NCBI GenBank assembly: GCA_964548645.1
Contig: CAZJQU010000002.1
Span: 1-32,911, forward strand
Direction: 5' to 3'
Length of the DNA: 32,911 bases
DNA from: an uncultured Muribaculaceae bacterium
GTDB taxonomy: Bacteria; Bacillota_I; Bacilli_A; RF39; UBA660
Numbering within the stretch: the first letter of the stretch is position 1; each line of letters opens with the position of its first letter. Shown here piece by piece: positions 1 through 32,851 of the stretch. The notes under the pieces are model-generated. The model ran no database searches. It saw nothing but the letters and a program-made list of their open reading frames with translations, and was not told the DNA's origin. The position numbers and the translations under genes were made by a program.

Positions 1-5178
<5,178 letters not shown>

Positions 5179-6777: not shown

Positions 6778-6927
6778 AATTCACCTCCTAAATTATAAAA
6801 ACTCTCATTATCCATAACGAGAGTTTAAAATAACATTAGTTATTTAAGCCCTCGGTAGGATTTACTTTTTTACCTACTGTCTATGGGTATATTTGCTTTT
6901 TCAATTGGTATTATATATCAATATATA
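6778..6927 (-). promoter_or_regulatory. Structured rplJ 5' leader (candidate L10 leader autoregulatory RNA)
   Basis: 150-bp non-coding gap upstream of rplJ. Minus-strand hairpins: GTAGG..CCTAC within CCCATAGACAGTAGGTAAAAAAGTAAATCCTACCGAGGG, and AAACTCTCGTTATGGATAATGAGAGTTT followed by a T-rich run just before the SD. Assigned by position and structure only; no covariance model was run. Confidence 0.45.
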
Positions 6928-24040: not shown

Positions 24041-24469
24041 TTATTTTTTTCTTTGAATTTCAAAAAAATCTTTCAATATTTTTTTAGATTTCTCTTCAAA
24101 AATACCGTATTCAATATCTATTTTGCTATTTGCAACTATTACATCTAAGCTATGCTTATATTTATTATTTCTAGTAGAACAATATACCTTTTTTATTCTA
24201 GTTTCTGCGATAAGTCCCATGCACATTATACAAGGCTCTAAGTTTACAAATAGTAAACAGTCGTTAAGCCTCCAGTCCCCTATTTTTTTACAGGCTTTTT
24301 TTATTGCAATTATTTCGGCATGTGCAAAAGGGTTGTTTTTACTTTCTTTTAGATTATGGGCTCTTGCCACTATTTTATCATCACAAACCACGATAGCACC
24401 AATCGGAGTTTCACCTTTTTTAAAAGCTTTATTAGCTTCTTTTAAGGTCTCTAACATATATTTTTCCAT
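24041..24469 (-). CDS. tadA: tRNA-specific adenosine deaminase
   Basis: HAE...PCIMC zinc-binding deaminase motifs. Start re-called at 24469 (GGAGGTGAA-ATG, MEKYMLETL). The ORF-track extension to 24502 would read through a parS palindrome and has no SD. Confidence 0.9.
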   Translation of the reverse strand: MEKYMLETLKEANKAFKKGETPIGAIVVCDDKIVARAHNLKESKNNPFAHAEIIAIKKACKKIGDWRLNDCLLFVNLEPCIMCMGLIAETRIKKVYCSTRNNKYKHSLDVIVANSKIDIEYGIFEEKSKKILKDFFEIQRKK

Positions 24470-24479
24470 TTCACCTCCA

Positions 24480-24497
24480 ATGTTCCACGTGGAACAT
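24480..24497. other. parS site, CC-type (ATGTTCCACGTGGAACAT; core TGTTCCACGTGGAACA)
   Basis: Perfect 18-bp palindrome matching the parS consensus TGTTNCACGTGNAACA. Lies 10 bp upstream of the tadA SD. Confidence 0.75.
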
Positions 24498-24538
24498 AGC
24501 ACAACTTTAATAATTCATATTTTACACTACTTAAACAT

Positions 24539-24617
24539 AAAAAACGACGTACACGAATCAAATTTGATTGGCTGCTACCTTTCGGTCCTGACCGATTATC
24601 AACAGACTCGTTACGTC
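24539..24617 (-). ncRNA. ffs: Signal recognition particle RNA, short (4.5S-like) form
   Basis: Minus strand GACGTAACGAGTCTGTTGATAATCGGTCAGGACCGAAAGGTAGCAGCCAATCAAATTTGATTCGTGTACGTC followed by GTTTTTT. GGTCAGGACCGAAAGGTAGCAGCC matches the universally conserved domain IV sequence (E. coli GGUCAGGUCCGGAAGGAAGCAGCC). The ends pair into a long hairpin. Firmicute synteny places scr next to tadA/dnaX. Confidence 0.8.
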
Positions 24618-24623
24618 TTATTA

Positions 24624-24652
24624 AGTATAGTTTATAACCACAAAAATATCAA
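24624..24652 (-). promoter_or_regulatory. Promoter of the SRP RNA gene
   Basis: Minus strand TTGATA - 17 nt - TATACT. Six nt downstream is the G that begins the SRP RNA hairpin. Confidence 0.55.
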
Positions 24653-24677
24653 TAAATTTAAGACAACACCTCTTACA

Positions 24678-24695
24678 ATGTTTCACGTGAAACAT
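24678..24695. other. parS site, TT-type (ATGTTTCACGTGAAACAT; core TGTTTCACGTGAAACA)
   Basis: Perfect 18-bp palindrome. The core equals the widely used consensus parS. Confidence 0.75.
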
Positions 24696-24765
24696 ACATT
24701 AGATGAAACAAATAAAGTCTGAGCCATAATAAGGAGTTGTTTGTTTCACATCGATTTTCATACAT

Positions 24766-24789
24766 AAATTATTTCCCGGGAAATAATTT
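24766..24789. other. Noc-binding-site-type palindrome (AAATTATTTCCCGGGAAATAATTT; core TATTTCCCGGGAAATA)
   Basis: Perfect 24-bp palindrome. The core equals the consensus NBS (B. subtilis ATTTCCCGGGAAAT). Confidence 0.65.
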
Positions 24790-24797
24790 GATAAGCT

Positions 24798-24815
24798 ATG
24801 TTCCACGTGGAACAT
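24798..24815. other. parS site, CC-type
   Basis: ATGTTCCACGTGGAACAT, 8 bp from the preceding NBS palindrome. Confidence 0.75.
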
Positions 24816-24900
24816 CGAAATGTTGTTGATCAATTAATGGTATTCAATGTATGTCTGAGTTTTTTGCTTATTTATTATATGCAATTAGAATCGCGCACTA

Positions 24901-24918
24901 ATGTTTCACGTGAAACAT
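24901..24918. other. parS site, TT-type
   Basis: ATGTTTCACGTGAAACAT. Confidence 0.75.
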
Positions 24919-24986
24919 TAAAAATTATATGTGACCTTTTTATAATCGACTATTGTCTATAGGTTATTTTATCATATTTAATTAAG

Positions 24987-25010
24987 AAATTATTTCCCGG
25001 GAAATAATTT
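24987..25010. other. Noc-binding-site-type palindrome
   Basis: AAATTATTTCCCGGGAAATAATTT, identical to the copy at 24766. Confidence 0.65.
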
Positions 25011-25018
25011 AATGAGTT

Positions 25019-25036
25019 ATGTTCCACGTGGAACAT
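25019..25036. other. parS site, CC-type
   Basis: ATGTTCCACGTGGAACAT, 8 bp from the preceding NBS palindrome. Confidence 0.75.
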
Positions 25037-25111
25037 TGTTTTTTTGTTTAATTAAAGAGTTGCTTCTATTTTATATTTGAATAAATTGTTTGTTCTTTTT
25101 TTTGCTGGTTC

Positions 25112-25129
25112 ATGTTTCACGTGAAACAT
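25112..25129. other. parS site, TT-type (palindrome extends to 20 bp, 25111-25130)
   Basis: CATGTTTCACGTGAAACATG. Confidence 0.75.
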
Positions 25130-25199
25130 GAAAGGCAAGGAGAATTTATTATTTATGAATAACAATTATTTTATAAGCATATCTGTTCTGTTGATCAAC

Positions 25200-25223
25200 A
25201 AATTATTTCCCGGGAAATAATTT
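25200..25223. other. Noc-binding-site-type palindrome
   Basis: AAATTATTTCCCGGGAAATAATTT, third identical copy. Confidence 0.65.
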
Positions 25224-25232
25224 AAAGAAAAG

Positions 25233-25250
25233 ATGTTCCACGTGGAACAT
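25233..25250. other. parS site, CC-type, abutting the gyrA stop codon
   Basis: ATGTTCCACGTGGAACAT, 9 bp from the NBS. Its last base is the last base of the gyrA TGA (25250-25252 on the minus strand). Confidence 0.75.
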
Positions 25251-27679
25251 CATTCTTTTATATTAAATACTGCAGTTACTTTTTGATTATCTTTTACATT
25301 TATAAGTCTTACTCCTTGAGTAACCCTACTCATGGTTGATATTTGATTTATTGGAATTCTAATTACCATTCCACTATCTGTTATTATAATTAGATCTTCG
25401 TCTTCTTCTACAATTTTGAATGCAACTATTTTTCCTGTTTTATCTGTTGTGTTTAGAGTTTTAACACCTTTGCTTCCTCTTTTTGTTGTTCTATATTCCT
25501 CTATTACAGTCCTTTTTCCATAACCGTTTTCACTTACAACTAAAACTTTGCTGTTGGCATCTACAATATTTGCATCAATACACAGAGCTCCTGAATCTAG
25601 ATTTATTCCTCTAACGCCAGTTGCCGTTCTTCCCATTATTCTAACTTCTTCTTCGTTGAATCTTACCATCTTTCCAGTTGAGGATGCCATGACTACCTCA
25701 GAATGGCCATTTGTCTTTCTAACAGCAATTAACTTATCGTCCTCTTTTAATTTTATAGCTATCTTTCCAGTTTTCCTTATGTTTTGGAATTCTTCCACCT
25801 TACATCTCTTAACAAGGCCTTGTTGGGTTGCAAATAGTAAACATTTGTTTTCTTCATCTTTTGAAACCTTTAGAATTGATGTTATTCTTTCATCTTTTTC
25901 TAATGGTAGCAAGTTTACAATTGGTAAACCTTTTGATTGCCTGCTAAATTCTGGCACTTCATAACCTTTTATTCTATAGATTAACCCTTTATCTGAGAAA
26001 AGCATCAGAAAGTCATGTGTATTTAACATTAATAGGTTTTCGGCGAAGTCTTCTTCATTTGTAGTCATTCCTTTTACACCAGTTCCGCCCCTATTTTGAG
26101 TTTTGTATGTATCAAGCGGTAACCTTTTAATATATCCTTTATTTGTTAATGTTATTATTATTTCTTCTTGAGGTATTAATTCTTCATCATCTATGTGTTC
26201 TATTGAAGACATATCTATTTTTGTTCTTCTTTCGTTAGCGTACTTTTCCTTTATTTCTAACATCTCTGTTTTAATTATTTCTAGTACTTTTTGAGGATCT
26301 GACAAGATTTCTTCTAATTGTCTGATCAAATTTAAGATATTTGCTAGTTCATCTTCTATTTTACCTCTCTCAAGTCCCGTTAATCTTCTTAGTTTCATTT
26401 CTAATATTGCTTCTGATTGAAGATCGCTTAATGAAAATCTGTTTTTGAGTTCTTCTTTTGCTTTTTGATCATCTTTTGATGTTTTTAGAATTTTAATAAT
26501 TTCATCTATATTATCTAAAGCAATTTTTAAACCTTCTAATATATGTTCTCTTGCTTTTGCTTTTTCTAAATCAAATTGAGTTCTTCTAATTATGATTGTT
26601 TTTTGATAATCGACATAATGTCTATATATATCTTTTAAACCTAGAGTTTTTGGTCTACCGTCTACTAGCATAAGTAGATTTATTCCATAAGATATTTGAA
26701 GGGGAGTATGTTTATATAGATTGTTTAATACAACATTTGCATTTGCTTCTTTTTTTATTTCTATATTTAACTTTATACCTTCTAATGATGATTCATCATG
26801 TAAGTCACTAATGCCATCTAATTGTTTGTTTCTTATTAACTCTCCAATTTTCTTCGTTAAATCGTTAGTTTTACTTACTTGATATGGTACCTCTGTTATT
26901 AAAATTCTGCTTTTTTTGCCCTCTTCTTCTATTATTTCAGCTTTTCCTCTTAATACTATAATTCCTTTTCCTGTTTCATATGCTTTTTTTATTCCACTAT
27001 TTCCTAATATATAACCGTATGTAGGAAAGTCTGGTCCTTTTATAAATTGCATAAGTTCAAGCACTGAAATATCAGGATTATCTATATATTGAATACAAGC
27101 ATCTATTACTTCTCCTAAGTTGTGCGGTGGTATATTCGTTGCCATACCTACTGCTATACCCATGTTTCCATTAACTAATATATTTGGAAATCTAGATGGT
27201 AGTATATTTGGTTCTCTTCTTTGTCCATCGTAATTATCAGAAAAATCTACTGTATTTTTATTTATATCTCTTAATAATTCCATAGAAATCTTTGATAATC
27301 TTGCCTCTGTATAACGAGAAGCCGCTGGACTATCTCCATCTCCAGATCCAAAGTTTCCGTGTCCATCTATTAATGTATGTCTATAAGTAAAGTCTTGTGC
27401 CATCCTTGCCATTGAATCATATATCGCAGAATCTCCATGTGGGTGATAATGTCCCATAACTGCACCAACCGCATTTGCACTTTTTTGATGCTTCTTTTCT
27501 GGTGTCATTCCTTCTTCAAACATAGTATATAGTATTCTTCTATGTACGGGTTTTAGTCCATCTCTAACGTCAGGTATTGCTCTAGATACTATTACACTCA
27601 TCGAATAGTCTAAAAAAGAGTTTTTTATTTCAGTTGATAAGTTAATATCTTCAATTTTATCTATTATTTTTTCTTCCAT
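25250..27679 (-). CDS. gyrA: DNA gyrase subunit A
   Basis: 809 aa. QRDR region HPHGDSAIYD, active-site AASRYTEARL, and a C-terminal beta-pinwheel with a GyrA-box-like QNRGGTGVKG. Confidence 0.98.
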   Translation of the reverse strand: MEEKIIDKIEDINLSTEIKNSFLDYSMSVIVSRAIPDVRDGLKPVHRRILYTMFEEGMTPEKKHQKSANAVGAVMGHYHPHGDSAIYDSMARMAQDFTYRHTLIDGHGNFGSGDGDSPAASRYTEARLSKISMELLRDINKNTVDFSDNYDGQRREPNILPSRFPNILVNGNMGIAVGMATNIPPHNLGEVIDACIQYIDNPDISVLELMQFIKGPDFPTYGYILGNSGIKKAYETGKGIIVLRGKAEIIEEEGKKSRILITEVPYQVSKTNDLTKKIGELIRNKQLDGISDLHDESSLEGIKLNIEIKKEANANVVLNNLYKHTPLQISYGINLLMLVDGRPKTLGLKDIYRHYVDYQKTIIIRRTQFDLEKAKAREHILEGLKIALDNIDEIIKILKTSKDDQKAKEELKNRFSLSDLQSEAILEMKLRRLTGLERGKIEDELANILNLIRQLEEILSDPQKVLEIIKTEMLEIKEKYANERRTKIDMSSIEHIDDEELIPQEEIIITLTNKGYIKRLPLDTYKTQNRGGTGVKGMTTNEEDFAENLLMLNTHDFLMLFSDKGLIYRIKGYEVPEFSRQSKGLPIVNLLPLEKDERITSILKVSKDEENKCLLFATQQGLVKRCKVEEFQNIRKTGKIAIKLKEDDKLIAVRKTNGHSEVVMASSTGKMVRFNEEEVRIMGRTATGVRGINLDSGALCIDANIVDANSKVLVVSENGYGKRTVIEEYRTTKRGSKGVKTLNTTDKTGKIVAFKIVEEDEDLIIITDSGMVIRIPINQISTMSRVTQGVRLINVKDNQKVTAVFNIKE

Positions 27680-29739: not shown

Positions 29740-30849
29740 TTATTTTTCGGTTACTTTTTTGTTTTTTACATTAAATATTTTTGAATCCTTTAGTAATTTA
29801 TCGTCTAAACTATTTAAATCTGTTGTAGTTATGAAGGTTTGAATGTCATTTTTTATATATTTTATTATATTGTTTTGTTTTTTTTCATCGAGTTCGCTAA
29901 ATATATCATCTAATAGTAAAACTGGATATTCTCCGGTTATTTCTTTGAATATTTCGATTTCTGCTAGTTTTAAACACACCATGATTATTCTTTGTTGTCC
30001 TTGAGAGGCATGATTTCTAATATCATTTTTATTTAGATAAAATATTAGGTCATCTCTGTGTGGACCGTTTACTGTCATTCCTAAAAATAAATCTCTTTTT
30101 ATATTGGATGTTAATTTTTTAAATAGAATCTCTCTTATTTCATCTTCGTTTTTTAAATTAGTTATATCTATATTTGTTTTGTATTCTATATCCAAATTTC
30201 CTTCTTCGAATATAGTTTTATATATTTTTTTTGTTTTTTGATTGAGTTTTTCTATAAAATCAATTCTTTTTTTGTAAATTTCGGTCCCTTTTTTTGAAAT
30301 TTGTTCATTTATGATAGAAAGATAGGTCAAATCAAGTTCTTCCATTTTCTTGTTTTTTATGTATTCATTTCTATTTTTTACTAATAAGTTATATTCATTT
30401 AATATTGATAAGTATTTATTATCTATTTGTGCGATTTCTATATTTAAGAACTTTCTTCTAGATGAGGGATTTCCTTTTATTAAATCTAAATCGCTGGGAA
30501 AAAACATTATTACGTTGAAGTTTGAAATGTAATGACTTATTTTCTTTATTATAATATCGTTTATTTTTACACTTTTTCCCTTTGTATTTATTAATATTTC
30601 AAATTTTTTTGTTTCTTTTTGTAATTCTAATTCGCCTTTTATCTTAGTTGCTTGTAAACCTTCTTTTATTAAATGTTTATCTATGTTTATTCTATGAGAC
30701 TTAGTTATAGCCAAAACATATATACTTTCTAATATATTTGTTTTTCCTACCGCATTATCTCCATAAAATATATTTATATTGGGAGAAAATTGTAGTTTTA
30801 AATCCTCATAATTTCTAAAGTTTTTTAATTCTAATTTGTTTAGTTTCAT
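29740..30849 (-). CDS. recF: DNA replication and repair protein RecF
   Basis: 369 aa. Walker A GDNAVGKTN, signature SQGQQR, Walker B LLLDDIFSELD. Confidence 0.93.
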   Translation of the reverse strand: MKLNKLELKNFRNYEDLKLQFSPNINIFYGDNAVGKTNILESIYVLAITKSHRINIDKHLIKEGLQATKIKGELELQKETKKFEILINTKGKSVKINDIIIKKISHYISNFNVIMFFPSDLDLIKGNPSSRRKFLNIEIAQIDNKYLSILNEYNLLVKNRNEYIKNKKMEELDLTYLSIINEQISKKGTEIYKKRIDFIEKLNQKTKKIYKTIFEEGNLDIEYKTNIDITNLKNEDEIREILFKKLTSNIKRDLFLGMTVNGPHRDDLIFYLNKNDIRNHASQGQQRIIMVCLKLAEIEIFKEITGEYPVLLLDDIFSELDEKKQNNIIKYIKNDIQTFITTTDLNSLDDKLLKDSKIFNVKNKKVTEK

Positions 30850-30850
30850 C

Positions 30851-32197
30851 TTATTTTCCTAAACAGAAATTACTGAATATTTCGTCAATTAGTTCTTCTT
30901 TGTAGTTTTTTCCAATAACGTCTCCTAATAGTTCCCAAATTTGTTTTAAGTCTATTTCTAATATATCTACTGGTAATTCTTCTTTTAAACCTATCTTTAT
31001 ATCTTCTATATTAACTATTGTTTTCTTTAATGTGCTGATTTGTCTAGTATTAAAGAGATAATTCGGATCTTTTTTATTTATTTCATTTATATTAAATTTA
31101 TCTATAATTTTATCTTTTAAATTTGTTATATCATTATTTAAAGCACTTATTTCTACAATATCTCCGGATAGCATTGTCTTATCTATCTTTTGTTCTAAGT
31201 CCATTTTATTTATTACGATTATTCTGTTTTTATCTTTTGTTCTCTCTAATAGTTCTATATCTTCTTTTTCTAAAATTTCATTATTATTTAAAACTAATAT
31301 TATAAGGTCTGATTCATCTATCAAATTCAAAGATTTATCCACACCAATTTTTTCTATTATATCTTTTGTGTCTCGTATTCCGGCAGTATCCGTTATATTA
31401 AATAGTATAGAGTTTATTGAAATTGTTCCTTCTACTATATCTCTAGTAGTTCCAGCGATATCGGTAACTATTGCTTTATCTTCATCTATTAATTTATTTA
31501 ATAAACTGCTTTTTCCAACGTTTGGTTTTCCTAAAATAACAGTGTTTATTCCGTTTTTTATTATTTTTCCATTTTCGCTTTCTTTTATTATTTTAACTAT
31601 TTCTTCTTCTATAACCTTTATTTCTTTATCTATCATTTCTTTTGTTATTACTAATATGTCTTCGTATTCAGGATAGTCTATATTTGCTTCTATATTAGAT
31701 AATATTTTTGATAGTTTACTTCTTAAGTTTTCAATCATAGTTGAAATATTACCTTTAATTCCGTTAATTGCTAGTTTTCTAGCTGATTCTGTTTTTGAAT
31801 TAATTAATTCCATAATTGATTCTGCTTCGATTAAATCTATTCTTCCATTTAAAAATGCCCTTTTTGTGAATTCTCCTGGTTCAGCAAGTCTTGCTCCATT
31901 TTCTATTAATAATTCTAATATTTTATTTGTAGTTGTTATCCCGCCATGACAATTAATCTCAATAATATCTTCTTTTGTGAAGGTTTTAGGCGCTCTCATC
32001 AAACTTACTAAAACTTCGTCTATTATTGTGTTTTTTTCTTTTATAAAACCATAATTAATAGTATGACTTTCTATATTAGTCAAATCTTTACTAAATATTT
32101 TATTTACTATCTCTATTGCTTCTTTACCGCTTATTCTTATTATAGATATTGCTCCGATTCCCAAAGCTGTAGATATTCCTGCGATTGTGTCGTACAT
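30851..32197 (-). CDS. mnmE: tRNA uridine-5-carboxymethylaminomethyl modification GTPase MnmE
   Basis: N-terminal DTIAGIST, G-domain GKPNVGKSSL / DTAGIR / NKMD, and the C-terminal CxGK tail (FCLGK). Start preferred at 32197 (GGGTGA-TTTT-ATG). Confidence 0.95.
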   Translation of the reverse strand: MYDTIAGISTALGIGAISIIRISGKEAIEIVNKIFSKDLTNIESHTINYGFIKEKNTIIDEVLVSLMRAPKTFTKEDIIEINCHGGITTTNKILELLIENGARLAEPGEFTKRAFLNGRIDLIEAESIMELINSKTESARKLAINGIKGNISTMIENLRSKLSKILSNIEANIDYPEYEDILVITKEMIDKEIKVIEEEIVKIIKESENGKIIKNGINTVILGKPNVGKSSLLNKLIDEDKAIVTDIAGTTRDIVEGTISINSILFNITDTAGIRDTKDIIEKIGVDKSLNLIDESDLIILVLNNNEILEKEDIELLERTKDKNRIIVINKMDLEQKIDKTMLSGDIVEISALNNDITNLKDKIIDKFNINEINKKDPNYLFNTRQISTLKKTIVNIEDIKIGLKEELPVDILEIDLKQIWELLGDVIGKNYKEELIDEIFSNFCLGK

Positions 32198-32213
32198 AAA
32201 ATCACCCAATAAC

Positions 32214-32222
32214 ATTATAACA
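32214..32222 (-). promoter_or_regulatory. Candidate extended -10 promoter for mnmE-recF
   Basis: Minus strand TGTTATAAT in the jag-mnmE gap. It is preceded by the weak hairpin AGAGT-TAAT-ACTCT followed by TTTTTT. Confidence 0.35.
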
Positions 32223-32242
32223 TTAAAAAAAGAGTATTAACT

Positions 32243-32851
32243 CTATTTTTTCTTTATTGTTATACATCTATTTGGTTCTTCACCCACAGATTCTGTAGTA
32301 ATTCCACCAATCTCTGAACATATGCTGTGAACTAATCTTCTTTCGTATGAGTTCATTGGATCAAGTGTTACTTCAACTCCAGATTTTTTTACATCGAATG
32401 CTATTCTTTTTATATTTCTTTCTAAGTTTCTTTTTTGTTTTTCTCTATAATCCTCAACATCTATTATAATATTTACTTTAAATCCTGTATTGTTTTGAAT
32501 AGAACTCCTTACTATTATCTGAATTGAATCTAGTGTTTGTCCGTTTCTACCAATTAAAATTGAGTTTTTATCTGAAAATAAAGTAAATTTTAAATGATCA
32601 TCTCTCTTTTTTGCCTCAATATTTGCATCTATTCCCATTTTTGAGGTTATTTCGAGAACCAGTTCTTTTACATAGTCTATCATGTCATCTTTTAATACTG
32701 CAGTTAGTTTAGTTTTTTTTGATTTAAATAAACCAGATGTTTCTTCTGTATCTTTGAAAAATACGTCTTTTTCTGAAACACTTAATTCATAAAACATTTT
32801 TTCTTTTGCCAAATCTAAGTTTTTTTCTACATATTCATAAGTTTTTATCAT
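32243..32851 (-). CDS. jag: RNA-binding protein Jag/KhpB (Jag_N, KH, R3H domains)
   Basis: 202 aa. KH-like IGRNGQTLDSIQ and R3H ERRLVH motifs. Synteny yidC-jag-mnmE. Confidence 0.85.
   Translation of the reverse strand: MIKTYEYVEKNLDLAKEKMFYELSVSEKDVFFKDTEETSGLFKSKKTKLTAVLKDDMIDYVKELVLEITSKMGIDANIEAKKRDDHLKFTLFSDKNSILIGRNGQTLDSIQIIVRSSIQNNTGFKVNIIIDVEDYREKQKRNLERNIKRIAFDVKKSGVEVTLDPMNSYERRLVHSICSEIGGITTESVGEEPNRCITIKKK

Follow-up and report, generated by a model that had tools for sequence, protein, structure and literature searches.

Can two clamps of the ParB family share the same DNA, and do they then pass, block or recruit each other? The locus that raises this question is a 770-bp non-coding gap between gyrA and tadA on contig CAZJQU010000002.1, in which three identical 24-bp palindromes carrying the Noc-binding site (NBS) are interleaved with seven perfect parS sites. 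The whole stretch of 32,911 nt was analysed (the window), and coordinates refer to it unless a locus is named by an L-number. Among duplicated DNA-binding proteins that evolved a new site and a new function, Noc and ParB are the standard case. In the species studied so far, the sites of the two proteins are physically separate and Noc function depends on a membrane helix. In contrast, in the natural system described here the sites are interleaved at the likely centromere, the Noc-type protein lacks the helix, and the arrangement is kept in more than 100 species of abundant, uncultured gut bacteria. The system bears on the role of Noc before or without membrane binding, and on the birth of new sites beside old ones after gene duplication. 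We consider it probable that the gyrA-tadA region is an origin-proximal centromere, serving as a composite loading array for two ParB-family clamps. The sites are as follows.

24480..25250, no strand: composite array of 10 palindromic sites, in the non-coding gap from the gyrA stop codon to the tadA ribosome-binding site, with the gene for the small signal recognition particle (SRP) RNA inside
24480..24497, no strand: lone CC-type parS in the stretch from the SRP RNA gene to tadA, with the Shine-Dalgarno sequence of tadA 1-2 nt downstream
24678..24695, no strand: TT-type parS-1, 18-bp palindrome ATGTTTCACGTGAAACAT
24766..24789, no strand: NBS-1, 24-bp extended NBS palindrome, with a 24-mer profile conserved across the clade
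24798..24815, no strand: CC-type parS ATGTTCCACGTGGAACAT, partner of NBS-1 at a centre distance of 29 bp
24901..24918, no strand: TT-type parS-2
24987..25010, no strand: NBS-2, identical 24-mer
25019..25036, no strand: CC-type parS, partner of NBS-2 at a centre distance of 29 bp
25112..25129, no strand: TT-type parS-3
25200..25223, no strand: NBS-3, identical 24-mer
25233..25250, no strand: CC-type parS, partner of NBS-3 at a centre distance of 30 bp, abutting the gyrA stop codon

The 24-mer AAATTATTTCCCGGGAAATAATTT occurs in exactly these three copies; no further copy was found in the window at up to 3 mismatches, and 0 were expected by chance (100 shuffles). Every letter of its 16-bp core TATTTCCCGGGAAATA matches the experimental NBS printed in the Noc papers, and its half-site differs from that of TT-type parS at two positions (TGTTTCAC vs TATTTCCC). 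Perfect 16-bp parS were observed 7 times in the array region (0.08 expected), as four copies of the CC-type TGTTCCACGTGGAACA (starts 24481, 24799, 25020 and 25234) and three of the TT-type TGTTTCACGTGAAACA (starts 24679, 24902 and 25113). All 10 sites are non-coding. The gaps between the 24-mers and the 18-bp CC-type palindromes measure 8, 8 and 9 bp. An earlier note on this DNA, made from the letters alone, had reported the three copies, the NBS identity of the core, the two-position difference and these gaps with their centre distances, and all were reproduced. Its composite unit of NBS and CC-type parS is indeed iterated three times, but the full unit is larger: TT-type parS, 89-91 bp, NBS, 29-30 bp (centre to centre), CC-type parS. 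The fourth CC-type parS lies outside the modules, beyond the SRP RNA gene. In an alignment of the three modules, only the 18-bp TT-type parS, the 24-bp NBS and the 18-bp CC-type parS are invariant and the spacers have diverged, as would be expected if an ancient triplication was followed by selection that acted on the sites only. No NBS-like or parS-like sites were found in the rest of the window, or in the 10 kb past its right end that are covered by a contig of a 98.6%-identical strain (L001). On that contig, rpmH-rnpA-yidC-jag diverges from dnaA-dnaN-mnmG-rsmG, a gene order that places the array, with its seven perfect parS clustered as in a ParABS centromere, ~9 kb from the dnaA-rpmH origin region. 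Note that a terminator scan scored the parS at 25233..25250 with the T-run after it (25232-25251, minus strand) as an intrinsic-terminator-like hairpin, and also flagged the parS at 25019-25036 (plus strand). These two parS palindromes may also serve as RNA hairpins.

The arrangement is conserved far beyond this strain. Bacterial genomes, one for each species, were scanned for NBS cores lying 4-34 bp from a parS, and at least 120 loci matched. All matching loci listed (at least 120) are from metagenome-assembled genomes (MAGs) of uncultured low-GC bacteria, labelled Bacilli, Mollicutes, Tenericutes, Mycoplasmatota, Erysipelotrichaceae or "Clostridium sp. CAG"; one is a complete MAG chromosome of 1.53 Mb (CP091739.1). 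We take the array-bearing genomes to resemble the GTDB orders RF39 and RFN20. Several records (L007, L008, L014, L030 and others) are labelled Muribaculaceae or Bacteroides; since they carry the low-GC gyrA-array-tadA locus of the clade, these are probably mislabelled or mis-binned MAG contigs. A mixed parS/NBS array is present in nearly all of the loci, and among those listed its slot is almost always the same, directly after gyrA and ahead of tadA or dnaX. The landmarks of this slot in the window are:

25250..27679, minus strand: gyrA, upstream boundary of the syntenic slot
24531..24627, minus strand: small SRP RNA gene (ffs; RF00169, 55.5 bits), syntenic landmark inside the array region
24041..24469, minus strand: tadA (tRNA adenosine deaminase), downstream boundary, with a likely ATG start at 24469 and GGAGGTG before the start

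Of 16 related loci tested, 15 have ffs next to the array. GyrA of the array loci is 58-82% identical to that of the window (median 62%), indicating that the syntenic slot has been kept over deep divergence. For tadA, the listed open reading frame (ORF) is a 153-residue product with a GTG start; the ATG at 24469 is the probable start, with the Shine-Dalgarno sequence GGAGGTG at 24472-24478.

Within the arrays the two site classes are mixed non-randomly, in at least 120 species. Adjacent pairs are of unlike type in 272 of 372 cases, compared to 199 ± 9 in permutations, a count that is inflated by tandem duplication. Perfect NBS lie within 700 bp of a parS in 261 of 306 cases (85%) in the sampled array loci. 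Among the regular arrays, periods of 64, 75, 76, 82, 84 and 117 bp occur; NBS number up to nine per array, and the densest arrays hold up to 22 sites in 2.6 kb. The NBS profile of the clade is a 24-bp palindrome with an invariant 16-mer and outer four bases per side conserved at 71-85% (background 36%), and the parS profile is conserved over 18 bp (120 loci listed). These distinct footprints fit two different binders. Position 5 of parS is degenerate across the clade (T in 72%) and both types neighbour NBS, so that a division of CC- and TT-type parS into separate specificities is unsupported.

The spacers of the arrays (L003-L122) are enriched in degenerate forms of NBS, in which the centre is CCCAGG/CCTGGG or one base is deleted, and perfect DnaA boxes (TTATCCACA) are ~4-fold denser there (0.26 vs 0.06 per kb). 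A third class of motif was rejected, as the enrichment was limited to the degenerate NBS variants, with DnaA boxes modestly in excess. In many species (L004, L006, L008, L019, L023, L038, L079 and others), the variable C-terminal region of dnaX contains a perfect 24-bp NBS, ~1.6-1.9 kb away from the array. This NBS is translated as IISREII or NYFPGNN, and its use in two frames points to selection acting on the DNA and not on the protein. The dnaX of L079 holds three NBS in tandem at 48-bp spacing; the dnaX of the window contains none. Composite NBS/parS matches were absent from 2.9 million viral contigs, which argues against a mobile or phage repeat, and this origin of the array was rejected.

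We next consider the protein that would recognise NBS. L001 encodes, at 1656-3029, a ParB-family protein of 457 residues in which Pfam finds ParB_N and HTH_ParB. It scores 271.7 bits against the Noc model TIGR04285 vs 160 bits against the generic ParB model, below the curated NCBIfam cut-off of 315 bits for Noc. Its best solved relatives are Noc structures (196-197 bits), followed by B. subtilis Spo0J (163 bits). The gene lies directly after mnmG-rsmG, on the other side of the chromosomal origin (oriC) and ~15 kb from the array, and it follows rsmG in seven lineages, as expected of noc. The choice between parS and NBS is set by positions 173, 179, 184 and 201, which are QKKR in Noc and RHTG in Spo0J; Q173 reads adenine 1, R201 reads cytosine 6, and a single lysine at 179 or 184 suffices (Jalal et al. 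2020). Aligned to solved structures, the L001 protein has Q/K/S/R at these positions. Thus, by the published rules, its helix-turn-helix (HTH) domain is of Noc type and the protein is predicted to bind NBS, not parS.

At least 120 homologues were obtained by database search (290-539 residues long), and the following counts cover the 120 listed. Q173 and R201 are invariant and K179 is invariant or nearly so; in place of K184 of Noc, the homologues have N, G, S, A or T. The boxes for binding cytidine triphosphate (CTP) are retained (GERR in 120/120, FQPR in 119/120, ENxxR in 115/120), and a ParA-binding motif is present in 0/120. AlphaFold models the N-terminal and DNA-binding region (8-201) and a small C-terminal domain (417-455) of the L001 protein with confidence. 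Hence the features of a ParB-CTPase clamp (FQPR, GERRxRA, ENxxR, HTH and C-terminal dimerisation domain) are present, and clamping is a prediction from them. The combination of CTP boxes, Noc-type HTH and Noc-like C-terminal domain suggests that loading at NBS would occur as a CTP-dependent clamp.

The protein departs from Noc at its N-terminus. In the Noc literature, the membrane-targeting helix is called "extremely conserved" and NocNdelta10 is non-functional; the helix elements were found in all Noc homologues examined, and the helix is needed for nucleoid occlusion (Adams et al. 2015, Jalal et al. 2021). In L001, in-frame stops five codons upstream fix the start of the ORF, ruling out an upstream start codon that would restore the helix, and Noc structures align with the protein only from their residue 25-27 onwards. 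Compared with B. subtilis Noc, the start of the protein and of each of the 120 homologues is shifted downstream by ~21 residues; their acidic N-termini have 14-22 residues before the PNRFQPR box (120/120). The stops and the late start of the alignment indicate that the 10-residue membrane-targeting helix alpha1 (the amphipathic helix of residues 1-10) and helix alpha2 are missing. Because it lacks these elements and scores below the Noc cut-off, we call the protein Noc-like and not Noc. Between its folded parts lies an acidic linker of ~210 residues with a net charge of -24, predicted by AlphaFold to be disordered. Given the missing helix, the missing ParA-binding motif and the acidic linker, the Noc-like protein probably does not tether DNA to the membrane as Noc does. 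Within the linker, AlphaFold models a short helix at residues ~300-321 with moderate confidence (block predicted local distance difference test score, pLDDT, ~72), and this segment may be a short interaction motif. Proline 345 is almost invariant across the family.

In the model that we favour, the 18-bp parS palindromes would nucleate canonical ParB and the 24-bp extended NBS palindromes the Noc-derived paralogue, which would load as a CTP-dependent sliding clamp and then spread. The interleaved sites would bring both clamps onto the same few kilobases by the origin, forming a mixed nucleoprotein complex. From the sequences we infer that a Noc-like paralogue would bind NBS and clamp with CTP, that a separate ParB would bind parS, and that co-occupancy by both clamps would be the selected function. 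The earlier note had offered three readings, in which the two clamps load side by side and tether the centromere to the membrane, one protein of dual specificity serves both sites, or the paralogues compete or hand off. Side-by-side loading is the best supported of the three; the membrane tether attached to it is unsupported, given the missing helix.

Several observations weigh against the two-clamp model. A search with phmmer (N-terminal half of the Noc-like protein against all ORFs) found no second ParB-family ORF in the window and 120 array loci (~0.9 Mb). A canonical ParB of the R173/G201 type was likewise not found there, nor in the 134.5 kb covered near the Noc-like gene of seven lineages, and ParA was not found, the deviant Walker A motif KGGxGK[ST]T being absent from the ORFs of ~1.1 Mb of loci. 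In the seven lineages walked, soj-spo0J never follows the Noc-like gene, so that the parS-binding partner is deduced only from the conservation of parS. The Noc-like gene itself was read in the 98.6%-identical strain, not in the contig of the window, and binding, CTPase activity and localisation of its family are predictions. Finally, 45 isolated NBS up to 7 kb from arrays make a more dispersed, Noc-like distribution conceivable. On the other side, the strict conservation of an 18-bp parS in more than 100 species implies a cognate binder, and the specificity residues argue that this is not the Noc-like protein. Some ParB-parS systems, such as that of Streptococcus pneumoniae, run without ParA.

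The alternative that survives best is ordinary nucleoid occlusion, which we regard as unlikely. Here the Noc-like protein would be a functional Noc that reaches the membrane otherwise, through a partner or a motif in the linker, and NBS would be spread over the chromosome with the array as their densest cluster. The Noc-type residues, the best matches to Noc, the position of the gene after rsmG and the modelled linker helix (~300-321) are all compatible with this, as are the 45 isolated NBS, which were found in dnaX, ybaB and holB. A further NBS-only mini-cluster of three sites lies in the jag-mnmE intergenic region of L130 (5834-5929), where two ATTTCCTGGGAAAT variants and one perfect core are 46-49 bp apart with no parS nearby. 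However, the helix essential to Noc is missing in 120/120 homologues listed, and a linker with a net charge of -24 is unlike a membrane anchor. The distribution of sites also argues against occlusion: 85% of the perfect NBS sampled lie close to parS, and across seven lineages, the 134.5 kb sampled near oriC and the Noc-like gene contain NBS in just one locus (and parS in none).

That a single ParB-family protein, the Noc-like paralogue, serves both parS and NBS through relaxed specificity or two binding modes appears improbable. In its favour, only one ParB-family ORF occurs in all sampled DNA, soj-spo0J is missing from its canonical slot in seven lineages, and the genomes are small (1.53 Mb for the complete MAG). 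The specificity residues argue against it, and so disfavour the dual-specificity reading of the earlier note for this protein: Q173 and R201 are invariant, whereas in a deep mutational scan all parS-specific variants carried R173 and most dual-specificity variants carried T or S at 201 and bound both sites more weakly (Jalal et al. 2020). Moreover, the two site classes remain clearly separate: apart from degenerate NBS variants, the spacers show no enrichment of intermediate sites. The conserved footprints of the two classes also differ (18 bp vs 24 bp).

The spacing of the sites bears on a third alternative. The earlier note had described NBS as locked in register with parS. The gap of 8-9 bp holds only inside the array of the window. 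Within any one array the distance is constant, but across species the centre distance varies from ~21 to 57 bp, and a universal fixed register was rejected. When every species contributes each distinct value once, the distances peak near 26-27, 36-37, 47-48 and 56-57 bp, a period of ~10.5-11.5 bp (p < 0.0005 vs a uniform null) that corresponds to half-integer helical turns. The signal holds at 84 genome clusters and weakens to p ~0.02 under aggressive collapse, and the 29-30 bp of the window fall between the peaks. The helical phasing of NBS and parS is thus suggestive only. With half-integer phasing, two dimers would sit on opposite faces of the DNA.

This close and possibly phased placement, with NBS 21-57 bp from parS in most arrays, would suit a boundary or roadblock. 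A protein bound at NBS would then shape the spreading of ParB or SMC, or regulate transcription of ffs, tadA or dnaX, and the sites do adjoin the gyrA stop codon and the tadA ribosome-binding site. We give this little credence, as the conserved CTP-clamp motifs predict a protein that leaves its loading site and not a static block, and up to nine NBS per array are more than a boundary element needs. Least of all do we credit a neutral by-product, in which tandem duplication copied a parS with a nearby NBS and the pairing is functionless: the spacing is constant within arrays and variable between species, and the three modules of the window clearly derive from one ancestral module, but the mixed array occupies the same slot in at least 120 species with GyrA down to ~60% identity, its sites stay perfect while spacers decay, composite units were amplified independently (periods 64, 75, 76, 82, 84 and 117 bp), and the lack of viral matches speaks against a mobile repeat.

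Returning to the two-clamp array, we give about even weight to a broader proposal. According to this, a large clade of uncultured small-genome Bacilli possesses a two-paralogue centromere, in which an anchorless Noc-derived CTP clamp with a long acidic disordered linker, loaded from 24-bp NBS that are interleaved and possibly phased with parS, acts with ParB at the origin rather than in nucleoid occlusion. The system could show Noc as it was before the membrane helix was gained, with new sites arising beside parS by two substitutions per half-site. Alternatively, it could be a Noc re-purposed after loss of the helix.

Compared with known systems, the array is closest to Noc/NBS of Bacillus subtilis and Staphylococcus aureus, with which it shares the identical 16-bp site, the closest protein sequence including Q173/K179/R201, the CTP boxes and C-terminal domain, and the gene position after rsmG. 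In contrast to Noc, the clade proteins are without the N-terminal amphipathic helix and helix alpha2, have an inserted acidic disordered linker of 0-250 residues, replace K184 and score under the TIGR04285 cut-off. Their NBS are conserved over 24 bp instead of 14-16 bp and, where sampled, are concentrated in one origin-proximal array among parS, whereas those of B. subtilis are described as scattered round the chromosome. Unlike at the B. subtilis noc locus, soj-spo0J does not come after the Noc-like gene (seven lineages).

As in the clustered-parS ParABS centromeres of Caulobacter, Pseudomonas, Myxococcus and Corynebacterium, the parS match the consensus perfectly (TGTTNCACGTGNAACA), are non-coding and lie within ~10 kb of oriC. 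The array differs from these centromeres by the second ParB-family site class interleaved with parS, by its unusual compactness (up to 22 sites in 2.6 kb) and sometimes perfect periodicity, and by having no parAB operon nearby, none being located in the sampled DNA. RacA of B. subtilis likewise is a second DNA-binding protein that organises the origin alongside ParB-parS, through its own palindromic ram sites in the origin region. However, RacA is not a ParB-family CTPase and ram sites extend over hundreds of kilobases without being interleaved with parS, and the likeness is a functional analogy only. The Noc-like protein also resembles the orphan ParB-CTPase paralogues KorB, VirB, BisD and PadC, which have a ParB fold without the ParA-binding motif and uses beyond ParA-driven segregation (PMC12704722). 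These act at unrelated sites of their own, mostly as transcription regulators or scaffolds, and unlike here none is reported with sites interleaved in a chromosomal centromere (PMC12704722). The literature search found no description of interleaved or clustered parS/NBS arrays, of NBS in fixed register with parS (in agreement with the earlier note) or of a helix-less Noc family. The pair of 24-bp NBS and 18-bp parS may suit orthogonal DNA labelling.

The genes of the window are all on the minus strand, in the order jag, mnmE, recF, gyrB, gyrA, array, small SRP RNA gene, tadA, dnaX, ybaB, recR and holB, followed by housekeeping genes down to rpoB. One further RNA feature was annotated:

6786-6904, minus strand: ribosomal protein L10 leader (RF00557, 61.5 bits), upstream of rplJ-rplL

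The origin is rearranged in this species (window 29740-32851, L001/L123), with mnmE and then recF-gyrB-gyrA on one side of oriC, and dnaA-dnaN and then mnmG-rsmG-noc-like on the opposite side. Other lineages (L129, L130) have kept a B. subtilis-like order, with jag-mnmE-mnmG-rsmG-noc-like and dnaA-dnaN-recF. In the related strain, dnaN appears as two separate ORFs, one of 84 and one of 260 residues (L001 5658-6738; L123 6292-7372), probably because of a frameshift or assembly error. Genes linked to sporulation and competence (SpoIIR, SpoIID, SpoVG, ComK and DivIC) were found in the small-genome MAGs, namely in L124, L126, L128 and L130 (~6-8 kb downstream of the Noc-like gene), at L129 17168-17440 and at L130 113-565; the clade may still possess part of the sporulation programme. 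Several lineages have, next to the Noc-like gene or dnaN, pilin-like genes whose products carry an N-terminal methylation motif and bacterial Ig-like surface domains (L001 170-1623, L124 5860-7269, L131 11142-12853).

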